64,000 nt of DNA, from the sequence record NC_018087.3, one strand, 5' to 3'. Below, in pieces: positions 7,607 through 13,660 of this stretch. This DNA is from Acinetobacter phage ZZ1. The translations under genes were made by a program, and so were the position numbers. The notes under the pieces were generated by a model. The model was given only the letters and a program-made list of their open reading frames with translations. It was not told the DNA's origin and did not search any database. Position 1 is the first letter of the stretch, and each line of letters starts with the position of its first letter.

Positions 7607-8026
7607 ATGAAAAACTTATTTTTAGTAATGACTGCAAACTTCGAAGTTTCTTATGTATCTACTGCACCGGTTGCAGATAATGGAGCTGAAATTGTTGTAC
7701 GTCAAGATATTCTTAAACATCTTAGTGTTACACAATTGGTTCAAATCGCTAAAAGCATGAACCCTGAATTAAAAGTTAATAATAAACAAGCGCGTGAAAT
7801 CATTCTCACTGCTATTGATGAAGAAATTGTTAAAATCCCAGTTAAATCGACTGAAACTAAAACAGTATCTTCTAAATCAATTTGTTATGCGGCATTTGAT
7901 TTAATCGATATGGATAATAAAGAAGTTGCACGTTCTACTGTTGAAGCTTTGATTACAGAGCACAATATTCCAAAACGTGTTGTTCAATCTTATGCATCAA
8001 ACTATCGTAAAGCTAAACGCGCATAA
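7607..8026 (+). CDS. hypothetical protein (early-type promoter upstream)
   Basis: 139-aa ORF followed by a terminator. Confidence 0.45.
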   Translation: MKNLFLVMTANFEVSYVSTAPVADNGAEIVVRQDILKHLSVTQLVQIAKSMNPELKVNNKQAREIILTAIDEEIVKIPVKSTETKTVSSKSICYAAFDLIDMDNKEVARSTVEALITEHNIPKRVVQSYASNYRKAKRA

Positions 8027-8043
8027 AATTTAAGTATGAAAAA

Positions 8044-8068
8044 ACCCGCAAATTGCGGGTTTTCTTTT
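8044..8068 (+). terminator. intrinsic terminator
   Basis: hairpin acccgca-aat-tgcgggt followed by TTTCTTTT. Confidence 0.55.
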
Positions 8069-8161
8069 ATTTGGCGGAAAGCAGTGTAGTCGAAACACAA
8101 CCGATTTAACGGTCCACTCGGTTAGCAGTCGGTGCCAATGACCTCATTGATTTACTTTCCA

Positions 8162-8392
8162 TTATTGAATTACTGCAGTAGGTGTATAAAAATTAGATAA
8201 TACACTTAAAATCTTATCTAATTCAACTAATGCATGATATCGATTTTTATAAACTGATCTATGTTCGGTACATTCAACTTTGATACCAGTTGAAATATGA
8301 GTAACTCGAACACCTCTATCGGGCGTATTAACCCAATTACTATGTTTGCCTACTCTAAATGTATCAATTCTAATATCAGAAGGTAGTAGCAT
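8162..8392 (-). CDS. class-I release factor domain-3 (GGQ domain) homolog with GGQ replaced by HSN
   Basis: 76 aa MLLPSDIRIDTFRVGKHSNWVNTPDRGVRVTHISTGIKVECTEHRSVYKNRYHALVEL. It aligns with the RF1 block [69 protein letters not shown], ERS and KN are conserved, but the catalytic GGQ is absent. An RBS GAGG sits 8 nt upstream. Confidence 0.6.
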   Translation of the reverse strand: MLLPSDIRIDTFRVGKHSNWVNTPDRGVRVTHISTGIKVECTEHRSVYKNRYHALVELDKILSVLSNFYTPTAVIQ

Positions 8393-8413
8393 TTTAATTT
8401 CCTCATTTAAAAA

Positions 8414-8512
8414 TACGAGCGGGAATCGAACCCGCTAGCGCCGTATGGTCTTACGCGAACCATTCTTTCAATGGAATCGAACCATCTGCAGCCTCCGCCG
8501 GCACCTTCCACC
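8414..8512 (-). ncRNA. aberrant tRNA-like element (possible pseudo-tRNA)
   Basis: Two minus-strand T-arm-like motifs (gcggg-aatcgaa-cccgc and ggaatcgaacc). No consistent acceptor or anticodon stem could be folded by eye. Confidence 0.3.
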
Positions 8513-8518
8513 AAGGTA

Positions 8519-8968
8519 TCAGGTAATAATATAAATTGGTTTTTGTGGTAATATCGTCTCTAAATTATCAATAGTTCGACGAATTTTTGCCATCAAGTTT
8601 TTATCAACAATTGCGTCAGGTCCAACATTAATAAAAACACGTTCGATTGTTTTAAGGGCATCAAATCCACGTAAGGAATTTGCATTTCTATAACCAGTAG
8701 AAAAAATAAAACAATCTTGGCCCAAATCAGATTTAAAATTCCGTGCTGCAGGTAAAGACTGTGCAACATAAAGATCAGTATCTTTATTAAAAATTTCTAA
8801 AATATTTTTAGTACAATTAATAGGTGTGCACACATAAATCATACGATTGTAAATGGCATCTATAGGTTTATACGTTATTGGAGTTGTGGTTGCAGCTTTC
8901 TCTTTTACCTTATGGCATGTAAGATCTAAAAATCGTTGTAACTCATTCATAACATTCCATCCAAACAT
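8519..8968 (-). CDS. hypothetical protein
   Basis: 149-aa ORF between the tRNA cluster terminator and the RF-like gene. Confidence 0.45.
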   Translation of the reverse strand: MFGWNVMNELQRFLDLTCHKVKEKAATTTPITYKPIDAIYNRMIYVCTPINCTKNILEIFNKDTDLYVAQSLPAARNFKSDLGQDCFIFSTGYRNANSLRGFDALKTIERVFINVGPDAIVDKNLMAKIRRTIDNLETILPQKPIYIIT

Positions 8969-9032: not shown

Positions 9033-9108
9033 TGGCGGCGTCGCCAAGGACTCGAACCCTGGATTGCGGATTTGGAATCCACCGTGTTTCCAACTACACT
9101 AACGACCC
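9033..9108 (-). tRNA. tRNA-Trp (anticodon CCA)
   Basis: Minus-strand cloverleaf. T arm caggg-ttcgagt-ccttg, anticodon stem gtgga/tccgc with loop ttCCAaa, D stem gtgt/acac. One mismatch in the acceptor stem. Confidence 0.6.
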
Positions 9109-9348
9109 TTAAACTGCAAATGTGCCAGCATGAAATAATCTCAAACACAATATAAAACATGTTGTCAACGCAGGAAAGCTTAATGGCATGTCACGATATA
9201 AATTGACAAGTGCATGCAAGCTGTTCTTTTTTAATTATATAGTAAGCACCAACAAATTGTGAAACGGTGGAATGAGTGAGGCAATTTGCTTTACTCAAGT
9301 ACCTATACTTACTATAGTGTATATTCGTCTTACGAGAAATATACAAAT

Positions 9349-9425
9349 TGGTCTCCGTAGAATGATTTGAACATTCGACACCTGCGTCCCAAACGCAGTG
9401 CTCTACCAGACTGAGCTATACGGAG
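9349..9425 (-). tRNA. tRNA-Pro (anticodon UGG)
   Basis: Perfect acceptor ctccgta/tacggag. Anticodon stem ctgcg/cgcag with loop ttTGGga. CCA is encoded. Confidence 0.7.
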
Positions 9426-9431
9426 TTAAAA

Positions 9432-9518
9432 TGGTGTGCCCCCTGGGATTCGAACCCAGATAGCGTTAGCGCCGGAGTTACAGTCCGGTGAGTATGGCCA
9501 ATAACTCGAACGAGACAC
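9432..9518 (-). tRNA. tRNA-Tyr (anticodon GUA), class II
   Basis: T arm ctggg-ttcgaat-cccag. Anticodon stem ccgga/tccgg with loop ctGTAac. Long variable arm. Acceptor pairs with two G-U wobbles. Confidence 0.6.
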
Positions 9519-9638
9519 ATAAATTGCCGTGAAATGTCCTTTTATACTTTCGAGCATTTCACCACTCAATAAGTAAATCTTGAAGCTTTGTTTGTTTTAC
9601 AAGAGGAAACTTCGTCCTGCTTATCAGGCAATTAAATC

Positions 9639-9733
9639 TGGCGGAAGGTGAGGGGGTCGAACCCTCAAGGCGTGTCACCACGCTCGACTGATTTCAAGTC
9701 AGCTGCCGTCGCCAGCTTTCGGCTTGACCTTCC
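9639..9733 (-). tRNA. tRNA-Ser (anticodon UGA), class II
   Basis: Perfect acceptor ggaaggt/accttcc. T arm gaggg/ccctc. Long variable arm gcgtg-tcac-cacgc. Anticodon loop ctTGAaa. Confidence 0.65.
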
Positions 9734-9800
9734 AATAAAATATTGACGACCTAAGAACCTTTACACCAATAATGGAGACTTAGGACCCTTTACATCAATT

Positions 9801-9879
9801 TGGCTCCCACCGTGAGATTCGAACTCACCTAACCTCGGATTAACAGTCCGGTCCATGCACCTAGCTCGGATTCGTGGGA
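9801..9879 (-). tRNA. tRNA-Asn (anticodon GUU)
   Basis: T arm gtgag/ctcac. Anticodon stem tcgga/tccgg with loop ctGTTaa. Acceptor has one mismatch at 7-66. Confidence 0.55.
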
Positions 9880-9886
9880 ATAATTC

Positions 9887-9962
9887 TGGTGCCGACACGA
9901 GGATTTGAACCCCGGACCCTCTGATTACAAAACAGACGCTCTACCAACTGAGCTATGACGGC
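9887..9962 (-). tRNA. tRNA-Thr (anticodon UGU)
   Basis: D stem gctc/gagc with U8 A9. Anticodon loop ttTGTaa. T arm has a G-U pair. Acceptor has one mismatch. Confidence 0.6.
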
Positions 9963-10152
9963 AAATCATTAATCAAATGAACCCGGGATACAATTTGAAT
10001 TTTGCGAGGATAAGTCGCTCATCTACCGGTATCGCCAAGATCATTTGATTAATGATCTTATACATTTATTTATACAACCCAAAAGGGCACCAGTATGACC
10101 ACTTGCCGAGAACACAGTGAGTTAAAACTCTTTATGACAAGATTAATAAAAT

Positions 10153-10220
10153 TTGATCGCTAAAACTTTGAACTTTACGAAATAAAAACTTTAATCTTTG
10201 AGATTTAAACTTTAAGCTTT
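10153..10220. repeat. three direct ~15-nt repeats wAAACTTTrAnCTTT at ~22-bp spacing
   Basis: aaaactttgaacttt, aaaactttaatcttt and taaactttaagcttt lie in the 400-bp non-coding gap between tRNA-Thr and ORF 10365..10934. Confidence 0.5.
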
Positions 10221-10364
10221 CGCAATTTTGGGATAATGTACAGTCTTCGCGCATGGGAATCTGTATCACCATCAAAGTTCTATAACCTTAGAAGTTAGCC
10301 GATTTTAGGATGCATCGGCTAGAACCCTCTACAGTTTTTGATCATACTGATTTTATTTAAAACA

Positions 10365-10934
10365 TTAATCTAAAACAATTAATGGATTATTTTCTGTTAA
10401 AATTGCGTCGAATTCAAGCTCGAAGAAATCTATTGTCTTTTTAATTTCATCGAGTTCTTCTTGTATGTCCAGAATTGTAGGTTTTTCTCGTTTTTCCAAC
10501 AATGTCTTGAACTCGGCGTCATCTGATGGAGTTTTGAGCATCTTAGCATCAAACTCACGTTCAACTTGAACAAACAGTGAACGATTTGCAGCTAAATCTT
10601 TTTGCATTTTAGCATATAAGGCTTTAAGCTGAGGTAAAACATGAGTACGATATGTTAACGCATCATTAATACTCATTTCCATGTTGCCAATTTGAATTGT
10701 ATGTTTTGCATTGGCTCGATTAATTGCACAGCGCAATTTAAATTCTTCAGCTAAGCGATCTTTAAATGATTGAATATTACGACGACTTCCTTCAGAAAAT
10801 TCTTTAACCGGTCGTGCTGTTGAAATTTCAACTCCATTACGGAATACACCAGAAAATGCTGCATCACGAAGATCTGAAGTGAATGATACTTTATTGCGTT
10901 TTAACGTAACTAAACCACGAGCGATTGTAGTCAT
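10365..10934 (-). CDS. hypothetical protein
   Basis: 189-aa ORF inside the tRNA region. Confidence 0.45.
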   Translation of the reverse strand: MTTIARGLVTLKRNKVSFTSDLRDAAFSGVFRNGVEISTARPVKEFSEGSRRNIQSFKDRLAEEFKLRCAINRANAKHTIQIGNMEMSINDALTYRTHVLPQLKALYAKMQKDLAANRSLFVQVEREFDAKMLKTPSDDAEFKTLLEKREKPTILDIQEELDEIKKTIDFFELEFDAILTENNPLIVLD

Positions 10935-11155
10935 AATAAATTCCTCTATTCAAAATAAACTTTATGTGATCATTATATCATTAAATTATGAAAAGCAACT
11001 TAATTACTAATCATGTCCAACTTTTTTATTACATAATATACAAGTAGATTCTTTAGAATAATAACCCATATCATTTAACATTCTAGCTGTATATGAATCA
11101 TTATCTTTAGTTACTTGATAATAATGTTTGCAAAATAACTGTTTGAAGAACTTAA

Positions 11156-11398
11156 TCATTTAAGACGCACCTTGGCTTCAAAAACAAATCTGTATTCATC
11201 ATCCGTCAAAACTTTGGCTCGTTCATAAGAAGTTGCCATTCTTAAAACGGCACCAGTATATGATACAATTGCAAAAACACAATTTTTAGAATCTTTATTG
11301 GCAATTTCACCAACTTTAAATCTAAATTTTTTATACGTATATTTATTATCATACGTACATAAAAATTGTGCTAAATTTTTAGAAAATGTAAATCTCAT
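11156..11398 (-). CDS. hypothetical protein
   Basis: 80-aa ORF. A further ~50-aa minus ORF (11007..11159, TAG stop) overlaps its stop as ATGA. Confidence 0.4.
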   Translation of the reverse strand: MRFTFSKNLAQFLCTYDNKYTYKKFRFKVGEIANKDSKNCVFAIVSYTGAVLRMATSYERAKVLTDDEYRFVFEAKVRLK

Positions 11399-11676
11399 TA
11401 ATTTACCATCTTCATTTAAAATTCCATAAATTGAACGGCTTGATGTTTTATCAATGCACTTGCGACAAATCTATTTATTCATGGTAAACCTCATCAATTA
11501 AGGGTTAAAAGAAATAAAGGAGGTTTTTCATTCAAGGACCTCATACCTTTGCCAATGAGAGGGCATGCTAAGCAGTGGTCACATCTCAGGCTATGAATTT
11601 GGTGGATACCGGGAGTGCTTGCACCTCCAATCAACTACGTTGTCCGCTGCTTTACTATTTAAGCTAACAGTACCCA

Positions 11677-11753
11677 TGGAGACGCCGGATGGATTCGAAC
11701 CCTCATCGACGCGGATTTGCAATCCGCCGCATAACCAATTCTGCCACGACGTC
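11677..11753 (-). tRNA. tRNA-Cys (anticodon GCA)
   Basis: Anticodon stem gcgga/tccgc with loop ttGCAaa. Acceptor gacgtcg pairs with one G-U. One mismatch each in the T and D stems. Confidence 0.55.
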
Positions 11754-11944
11754 ATAAAATTTATTAAATGCAAGCAACTTCCTCAGTTTCCCCTGGCTAC
11801 CACACCAGTGCATTAAAGTTTCATTTATCTAGCATGACAGTCCCTGCAGTGACCAACATATTCAATAAAATTATTCAAAACTACATTTTCGGGAGCGACC
11901 CTATTCACTTCGTTTTTATATGCTATACTTGCTCTAATAAATCT

Positions 11945-12021
<77 letters not shown>

Positions 12022-12026
12022 AAAAA

Positions 12027-12102
12027 TGGTCCGCCTGACAGGATTCGAACCTGTGTGAGTCGCAATAGAACTACGATGCCTAATCCATTCGGCCACAGAC
12101 GG
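12027..12102 (-). tRNA. tRNA-Arg (anticodon UCU)
   Basis: T arm acagg/cctgt. Anticodon stem tcgta/tgcga with loop gtTCTat. Confidence 0.6.
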
Positions 12103-12195
12103 ATGTTTGGTGGAAAAGACAAGAATTGCACTTGCATATCCAGGAGTTATTAAGTTCCCGGGCGTTCACTTTGTTTCGCCACTTTCCCATAAATT

Positions 12196-12269
12196 TGGTC
12201 GTTCAGGACGGATTCGAACCGTCACACAGAGTTTTAGGGACTCCTGGTCTACCGTTAACCTACTGAACG
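12196..12269 (-). tRNA. tRNA with anticodon CUA (candidate amber suppressor; C at position 33)
   Basis: Sense strand cgttcag-ta-ggtt-aacggta-gacc-a-ggagt-ccCTAaa-actct-gtgt-gacgg-ttcgaat-ccgtc-ctgaacg-a-cca. Perfect acceptor and T stems. The 7-nt anticodon loop ccctaaa places CUA at positions 34-36. Confidence 0.5.
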
Positions 12270-13204: not shown

Positions 13205-13660
13205 TTATTTTTCAGGAGACCAATCTAAATCTAAATCCTCAACATATTCATGCGTGGCGCCGATTGAAATTTTAAACTCCAATTTAGGCTTTGCCATCGC
13301 CCCAATATCATATGCTAATGTAATATGAGGTTGATAATCCGGAAAATCATAAGTTGCACCCAATGCTTGTGCATATGCAAAACGAGAGTGCAAATAAGGT
13401 GAATCTAGTAATAACACAAGGGCTCGTTTGCCGTTATGTTCAAATATTTCAAAGTCTTTAGCATATGCAATAATACCAAGATTGTCCATTGGTTTAAATG
13501 GAACAAACACACGAGAATAGCATATTGTAGAATGTAATTTATCGCGAGGTGTTGCATCAAATAACTTTAATTTATCTTGTAAATCGCATAAAGCATCTAA
13601 TGTGTCATTACTAAATTTGACCGCAGCATATGTACCACGGTCAAGTTGACTAAATTTCAT
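13205..13660 (-). CDS. 57B: 2H phosphoesterase-family protein (two H-x-T/S motifs), at the T4 57B position
   Basis: KLHSTICYS and QPHITLAYD motifs lie ~70 aa apart in a 151-aa protein. Synteny places it immediately upstream of 57A and gene 1. Confidence 0.5.
   Translation of the reverse strand: MKFSQLDRGTYAAVKFSNDTLDALCDLQDKLKLFDATPRDKLHSTICYSRVFVPFKPMDNLGIIAYAKDFEIFEHNGKRALVLLLDSPYLHSRFAYAQALGATYDFPDYQPHITLAYDIGAMAKPKLEFKISIGATHEYVEDLDLDWSPEK

Follow-up and report, generated by a model that had tools for sequence, protein, structure and literature searches.

A conserved release factor domain without the GGQ motif in the tRNA cluster of Acinetobacter phage ZZ1

Introduction

What use does a bacteriophage have for the catalytic domain of a class-I release factor (RF) from which the catalytic motif is missing? 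The question is raised by a small gene at positions 8162–8392 of the 64,000-nucleotide (nt) stretch of Acinetobacter phage ZZ1 analyzed here (NC_018087.3), which we refer to as the window. The gene encodes a conserved, selected, standalone class-I RF domain 3 that lacks the Gly-Gly-Gln (GGQ) motif and the codon-reading and RF3-interacting domains. Its 76-residue product is 100% identical to the Acinetobacter phage ZZ1 protein, and over the 3 kb compared the window is ~99.6% identical to Acinetobacter phage vB_AbaSt_W16 and 98% identical to Henu6, which are T4-like phages.

The existence of the gene is already known from database labels and is not new. GenBank and PHROGs name it ‘RF-1 domain peptide chain release factor’ or ‘putative peptidyl-tRNA hydrolase’, names that, judging from the sequence, are probably wrong as to function. 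In the searchable literature we found neither functional nor structural work on an RF domain of this GGQ-less kind from a phage, and no mention of GGQ loss in phage proteins, of the Ser-x-Trp motif described below or of a split between GGQ-bearing and GGQ-less mini-domains. A survey of RF evolution (PMC6514570) nowhere mentions phages.

A standalone RF domain 3

The features that define the gene and its product are as follows (window coordinates).

8162..8392 including the stop codon, minus strand: coding sequence of the GGQ-less standalone RF domain 3, 76 amino acids (open reading frame list, Pfam, PHROG)
8401..8404, minus strand: Shine-Dalgarno sequence GAGG, 8 nt upstream of the ATG (read from the sequence)
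8333..8344, minus strand: codons for H17-S18-N19-W20, with HSN at the RF1 GGQ site and S-x-W the recurrent replacement (HMMER alignment, loop count)
8297..8308, minus strand: codons for R29-V30-T31-H32 (RVTH), the strand with the strongest conservation in the domain (invariant or nearly so in canonical RFs and in 30 short phage homologs)
8165..8191, minus strand: codons for FYTPTAVIQ, the C-terminal tail, with a motif peculiar to the clade of Acinetobacter phages (alignments)

The reading frame runs for 76 codons from an ATG start to a TAA stop. Its product scores 40.5 bits against the Pfam RF-1 family (PF00472; gathering cut-off 35, E = 3e-10, profile positions 9–69 of 116), and RF-1 is the sole Pfam family reported for it at E ≤ 10. 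The match to PHROG 20323 (‘RF-1 domain peptide chain release factor’) is stronger, pairing residues 1–72 with positions 1–73 of a 73-position profile (E = 1.1e-37). In a HMMER search of Protein Data Bank sequences, residues 3–58 align with residues 218–274 of Escherichia coli RF1 (E ~2e-11). Structure modeling of the monomer and fold matches predict the fold of RF domain 3, a three-stranded sheet and a helix; the model is confident overall and weaker for C-terminal residues 71–76, where the mean predicted local distance difference test score is 68. By sequence and predicted fold, the protein thus belongs to the Pfam RF-1 family and to PHROG 20323.

The protein is mildly basic, with 10 Lys or Arg residues versus 7 Asp or Glu, and ends 11 residues past the helix at 47–65. 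The tail beyond this helix follows a motif of the Acinetobacter-phage clade, [FY]Y-x-[PAH]-[TS]-x-x-[YIL]-[QS]-end. An initial annotation of this DNA had proposed a standalone homolog of the RF peptidyl-tRNA hydrolase domain, with its own ribosome-binding site and with neither GGQ nor codon-recognition domains. This description holds in each respect: the PF00472 score passes the gathering threshold, GAGG precedes the ATG by 8 nt, H17-S18-N19 stands opposite GGQ in the RF1 alignment and the RF1 and RF2 models (TIGR00019 and TIGR00020) are matched by the 76 residues only at positions ~221–283, with 49 and 43 bits versus cut-offs of 423 and 370.

The loop that replaces GGQ

In addition to the substitution of all three GGQ residues, the loop is one residue shorter in the phage protein than in RF1. 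Among 30 short phage homologs, V28, R29, T31, H32, G36, N50 and A54 are invariant or nearly so, and these are scaffold motifs common to all GGQ-domain proteins. In the same set, neither the length nor the sequence of the loop that joins strands 1 and 2 is constant.

What occupies the tip of the loop was counted by position, as the residue eight places before the [VC]R[VLI]TH strand, a measure that is independent of how the loop itself is aligned. Trp is found there in 15 of 44 distinct GGQ-less loops and one place to either side in 4 more, and 3 have Phe; in 108 GGQ-bearing sequences the position is His in 70, Ser in 18 and Trp in none (the sequences tallied are related to each other, and the tally is not a probability). 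The recurrent form, [G/A/H]-S-x-W-[V/I/L/F], stands for G-G-Q-H-V and occurs in at least seven lineages, including Acinetobacter T4-like phages, Pseudomonas siphoviruses and several metagenomic phages. This pattern suggests a new use of the loop tip that is shared across lineages.

Conservation and selection in Acinetobacter phages

A tblastn search of 50,697 phage records found the protein in 65 Acinetobacter phage records. We sampled five lineages: Lazarusvirus (Berthold, Kimel), Hadassahvirus (Minot, AbTZA1/PhT2), AB1I1M-1, Acajnonavirus (Acj9 and contig L008) and a ZZ1-like metagenomic contig (L007). Orthologs of 76–85 residues are present in all five, with 38–54% identity to the window protein, and none of the Acinetobacter-phage orthologs examined has GGQ. 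In every sampled lineage the gene is found inside a tRNA cluster or at its margin, and in three it starts ~20 nt past the 3′ end of a real tRNA.

Ratios of nonsynonymous to synonymous substitution (dN/dS, Nei-Gojobori) are 0.07 and 0.13 in two close pairs and 0.48 between the window and contig L007; these estimates rest on few sites, the gene being short, and agree with the long-range conservation. By these sequence comparisons, the gene is conserved and under selection.

Relatives in other phages

A profile built from six phage proteins and searched against 5.8 billion proteins recovered 255 short RF-1-domain proteins, and of the best 120, ~30 are GGQ-less proteins of 60–130 residues. Some 40 further short RF-domain proteins without GGQ are encoded on unrelated phage contigs. 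The contigs carrying GGQ-less short homologs are phage-like, with genes such as rIIB, TerD/TerC and HNH endonucleases, and have no tRNA gene within 6 kb of the homolog. When 29 GGQ-less proteins were compared with NCBIfam-type models, prfA matched 29 of 29, prfB 28 and prfH 26; no ArfB model matched any of the 29 at E ≤ 0.001.

A profile of these 29 proteins gave 13,735 matches at E ≤ 0.001 among 1.84 billion representatives. Canonical RF fragments dominate the best 150, and family size cannot be estimated from this search; among the matches listed are three new GGQ-less proteins (P0123, P0124 and P0206). A related-locus search with a narrow alignment returned 39 loci, most of them on viral contigs with genes for GGQ-bearing RFs, PrfH-like proteins or other RF-domain proteins, and single-sequence word-index searches gave next to no matches. 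One candidate, a full-length high-GC RF2-like gene of Pseudomonas phage Y1 (L054, OQ572403.1, 64219–72377), comes from an ‘UNVERIFIED’ record, is probably host DNA and was discarded.

The GGQ-less domain also occurs in longer proteins. In Septimatrevirus, a group of Pseudomonas phages, it is the first gene and encodes 164–170 residues; in Vibrio phages a 119-residue version is found, and in IMG/VR there are versions fused N- or C-terminally to uncharacterized domains. Pfam searches of ten domain-carrying proteins identified DUF7167 as the sole other family, and thus no informative partner. The Septimatrevirus proteins (TehO gene 1, L004:14–508; P0009 and P0124) continue past the GGQ-less domain with a segment that is basic and rich in aromatic residues (PKAKPRIYWTYYPKSRRGYWRVSAMPKPWKP) and with a helical region; this segment could be an RNA-binding tail. 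P0123, a metagenomic protein of 129 residues, carries two tandemly duplicated RF domain-3 units, both without GGQ, an arrangement hinting that such domains may act as dimers.

The initial annotation had also asked whether relatives retain GGQ. Close relatives never do, but a more distant group of phage proteins does. These proteins (68–76 residues; P0110, L043, L045 and L051) resemble the window protein in size, in consisting of the domain only and in phage origin, and are 24–32% identical to it. They differ in having an invariant GGQ between variable flanks and the C-terminal motif GGLTSPHYRG, and are likewise uncharacterized. The Trp-type proteins P0089 and P0092 align best with this GGQ-keeping group. 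A neighbor-joining tree of ~60 core residues is too poorly resolved for the number of GGQ losses to be counted.

Comparison with known release and rescue factors

RF1 and RF2 consist of domain 1, domains 2/4 with the PxT or SPF codon-reading motif and domain 3, whereas the 76-residue protein has domain 3 only. Relative to RF1 domain 3, it lacks GGQ, has S-x-W, is truncated in helix α7 and has no switch loop. Without GGQ, domains 1, 2 and 4 and the switch loop, it would therefore be incapable of reading stop codons, of being positioned by the decoding center or of catalyzing release.

The rescue factors ArfB (YaeJ), ICT1 and C12orf65 keep GGQ and use a basic C-terminal tail or a partner protein as a ribosome anchor; neither GGQ nor a basic tail is found here. 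In ArfB the GGQ domain is joined by a linker to a basic C-terminal helix for the empty mRNA channel; the window protein ends in FYTPTAVIQ instead, lacks the inserted α-i helix and gives no match to any ArfB model at E ≤ 10. It scores 35.7 bits against the PrfH model (cut-off 166.65) and lacks the reduced codon-recognition-like domain of that family, and no RtcB-type ligase gene was recognized among the neighbors checked or in a relative's annotation. Because GGQ, the extra domains and the basic tail were each looked for and are absent, we conclude from the sequence that the protein is not RF1, RF2, ArfB or PrfH.

The closest functional analogs may be other RF homologs that lack the glutamine. 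One is mS35 (MRPS35), a bacterial-type RF domain of the same fold, also without the glutamine, in mitochondrial ribosomes (PMC6514570). It is, however, eukaryotic, much larger, flanked by helical domains, a permanent protein of the small subunit and probably derived from ICT1, and it has no specific sequence similarity to the window protein. Dom34/Pelota and the glutamine-less baeRF-1 proteins follow the same logic, being RF homologs without the catalytic Gln in which the length of the catalytic loop is unconstrained, and entry into the A site without hydrolysis has been proposed or demonstrated for proteins of this type (PMC6514570). In contrast to the window protein, they have an unrelated RNase-H-like fold, are cellular and usually carry extra RNA-binding domains and have a GTPase partner.

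A model for function

The reading that we favor is that the protein is a non-catalytic mimic that competes with RF1, RF2, ArfA-RF2 or ArfB, to which we assign a probability of roughly 40%. The pseudo-enzyme would occupy the docking site of RF domain 3 at the peptidyl-transferase center, within the A-site cleft of the 50S subunit and beside the CCA end of the P-site tRNA. The altered loop, with Ser-x-Trp in place of Gly-Gln-His, may make an aromatic contact instead of presenting a catalytic glutamine. Because it could not hydrolyze, a protein bound at this position would compete with the host factors that insert a GGQ (RF1, RF2, ArfA-RF2 and ArfB), and peptide release or rescue could be delayed during infection. 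In the Acinetobacter phages, such a delay could favor decoding by the phage tRNAs, the amber suppressor included; the gene is co-oriented with the tRNA genes and ends at the putative terminator that closes their cluster.

Three considerations favor this target: (i) the 50S A site and peptidyl-transferase center is the sole partner common to all proteins with the domain; (ii) some phages encode the domain on its own with a conserved GGQ, which argues that proteins of this build reach the peptidyl-transferase site and (iii) conservation of an aromatic loop tip across phages of different hosts fits a conserved target such as rRNA or tRNA.

Several observations weigh against the model. The main objection comes from E. 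coli ArfB, whose GGQ domain on its own fails to bind ribosomes in sucrose gradients (PMC3950681), and the 76-residue protein has neither a basic tail nor a codon-reading domain to serve as a ribosome anchor. Trp is absent from about half of the GGQ-less loops, and their lengths differ. The conserved residues, including a cross-strand D10-R29-E40 ladder and the hydrophobic core, may be purely structural and thus uninformative about the partner. Outside the Acinetobacter clade, no tRNA gene lies within 3–6 kb of the GGQ-less relatives (Pseudomonas and several metagenomic phages). Finally, TAG is already a rare stop codon, ending 2 of 65 long open reading frames in the window, so a need to weaken RF1 is not evident.

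In its most elaborate form, the model describes a pseudo-release factor of several unrelated phage lineages, whose Ser-x-Trp loop would plug the peptidyl-transferase center and block termination, rescue or both. In Acinetobacter T4-like phages, it would be co-expressed with an amber-suppressor tRNA from a tRNA operon and would reprogram the handling of stop codons and stalled ribosomes. Taken as a whole, we consider this picture unlikely to be correct.

Genomic setting

The following features surround the gene.

9037..12269, minus strand: tRNA cluster, comprising Trp, Pro, Ser, Thr, Cys, Met and Arg tRNAs, a CUA-anticodon tRNA and an odd tRNA-like gene (ARAGORN, Rfam)
8072..8160, minus strand: tRNA-Ser-like gene of 89 nt, its CCA encoded and its variable arm long, beginning 1 nt past the end of the RF-domain gene (similarity, cloverleaf-like fold)
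8041..8063, no strand assigned: G+C-rich hairpin with T runs on both sides, a putative two-way terminator (terminator scan)
8405..8515, minus strand: decayed tRNA-like stretch with two T-arm-like hairpins (GGTTCGATTCC twice), upstream of the ribosome-binding site (sequence, fold)

All tRNAs called in the window fall within 9037..12269, on the same strand as the RF-domain gene. The gene is nevertheless inside the cluster and not merely beside it, because a tRNA-Ser-like gene begins 1 nt past its stop codon. This tRNA-like gene was missed by ARAGORN at default settings and by Rfam at E ≤ 1, and was called by ARAGORN only at a relaxed score; it has few mismatches to tRNA-Ser(GCU) of phage Minot, is identical in W16 and has one mismatch in contig L007. 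Should RNase P cut at its 5′ end, the mRNA of the RF-domain gene would end 1 nt past the stop codon. The hairpin at 8041..8063 likely closes both the transcription unit of the tRNAs and the RF-domain gene and that of the convergent gene at 7607–8026 (plus strand).

On the upstream side, the decayed stretch lies between the ribosome-binding site and a 149-residue reading frame to which no function is assigned. It gives a very weak ARAGORN call and resembles the remains of one or two tRNA genes. Its second T-arm-like hairpin (8418–8436) lies just ahead of the ribosome-binding site and, with the T run that follows it, also qualifies as a terminator by score.

The CUA-anticodon (amber-suppressor-type) tRNA at 12196–12269 (minus strand) is well formed, with an encoded CCA. 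Such tRNAs occur in most of the Acinetobacter T4-like lineages examined, with equivalents in L001, L002, L005, L006 and L008, and differ from one another in their anticodon-stem and acceptor sequences. Where the initial annotation placed the RF-domain gene beside a tRNA block with a CUA tRNA, its association with tRNA genes stands and is closer than had been stated; the implied functional tie to the suppressor tRNA is weak, their co-occurrence being confined to the Acinetobacter clade. Adjoining the CUA tRNA at 12111–12188 (minus strand) is a tRNA-like gene that scores 34.4 bits in Rfam (threshold 29), has a 10-nt anticodon loop (ACUUAAUAAC) and is not called by ARAGORN.

Protein genes are interspersed with the tRNAs: 10365–10934 (189 residues), 11156–11398 (80 residues) and 8519–8968 (149 residues), all on the minus strand. 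The first two have same-length counterparts in the tRNA regions of other Acinetobacter T4-like genera, and the 189-residue gene bears a doubtful ‘tail fiber’ PHROG label. Among five neighboring genes, PHROG searches gave four families without assigned function and this one label, and Pfam searches gave no match. At the head of the tRNA region, 4.8 kb upstream of the RF-domain gene and on the same strand, a 151-residue reading frame (13205–13660, minus strand) has two H-x-T motifs (LHSTICY and PHITLAY). It is of the 2H-phosphoesterase type and corresponds to T4 gp57B/Acb1, a nuclease directed against the cyclic-oligonucleotide-based antiphage signaling system; the W16 annotation calls it ‘RNA ligase’.

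Alternative explanations

The most serious alternative, which we nonetheless regard as rather improbable, gives the protein a non-ribosomal target. It would be an anti-defense or host-takeover binder, with a small fold like that of RFs or double-stranded RNA-binding domains co-opted either to sequester a nucleotide signal or to act on a host protein as its decoy or inhibitor. The binding surface would then be made up of the variable loop, the Trp and the C-terminal tail peculiar to the clade. The gene's location in an accessory region is consistent with such a role, as is the setting on two near-identical contigs, where an Acb2/Tad1-hairpin gene lies ~290 nt upstream of the GGQ-less gene with no called gene between. 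There is also a published resemblance to release factors of the viral sponge Acb4 (PMC11722364), a family defined by a tetramer that binds 3′3′-cyclic GMP-AMP. The window protein, however, has no sequence match to Acb4 (PF13876), which is not among its top structural hits. Nor did PADLOC-DB defense models match the window protein or five relatives at E ≤ 1.

A tRNA-directed factor is less probable still. Here the face that points toward A76 in release factors would bind the acceptor or CCA end of free or precursor tRNAs and protect the co-transcribed phage tRNAs or help them mature. The linkage to tRNA clusters in every Acinetobacter T4-like lineage examined, the three cases with a tRNA 3′ end ~20 nt before the start codon, the tRNA-like gene 1 nt past the stop codon in the window and the mildly basic protein all fit this proposal. 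So do mycobacterial tRNA arrays, one class of which has an RF-1-domain gene as its core gene (PMC5966550). We know of no RF domain that binds tRNA off the ribosome, however, and the Pseudomonas and several metagenomic relatives have no nearby tRNA gene. Homing endonucleases also shuffle gene order in T4-like tRNA clusters, and the linkage may be historical.

That the protein is a decoy for PrmC (HemK) seems very improbable. Diversion of this methyltransferase from the GGQ glutamine would leave host RF1 and RF2 under-methylated and less efficient in termination, and loss of methylation does cut termination activity 3- to 4-fold (PMC3152332). PrmC binds RF domain 3, and the RF1 chain of its complex (2b3t_B) is matched at E = 4.5e-11. 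It nonetheless needs a closed full-length factor and grips the Gln side chain in its active site (PMC3152332), and the phage protein offers neither. We infer, in addition, that RFs already methylated would outlast a short lytic cycle.

We likewise see very little prospect of a residual peptidyl-tRNA hydrolase activity, as the database names imply, with other residues such as N19 taking the part of the glutamine. An Asn does stand opposite the catalytic Gln in this one protein, but orthologs have N, R, A, S, G or T at that position. Phage relatives of equal size that retain GGQ are presumably active, yet in the window protein both glycines are gone and the loop is shortened. To our knowledge, GGQ is universally required in RF1, RF2, ArfB, ICT1 and PrfH.

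Least credible is the functionless, decaying remnant of a captured RF gene that the initial annotation also raised: the protein covers only ~60 of ~360 RF residues, has no catalytic motif and is flanked by decayed tRNA-like sequence, but its reading frame and ribosome-binding site are intact, its length, position and core residues are constant across at least five Acinetobacter lineages that have diverged to 38–54% identity, dN/dS is well below 1 (0.07–0.13 in close pairs), the derived loop motif is common to several lineages, the fold is predicted confidently and the protein belongs to PHROG 20323.

Implications

Whichever function is correct, the names attached to this gene in dozens of A. 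baumannii phages that are therapeutic candidates are very likely wrong about its activity. There is a clean division of the family into GGQ-bearing and Ser-x-Trp forms, suitable for side-by-side tests. If the protein is instead an anti-defense binder, a translation-factor domain would have been recruited for immune evasion. If, as in the model that we favor, it occupies the 50S A site or peptidyl-transferase center, the phage would encode a protein that inhibits peptide release or ribosome rescue. The protein would then also be a natural minimal ligand of this site, of value in structural studies and in engineering the genetic code by means of suppressor tRNAs.
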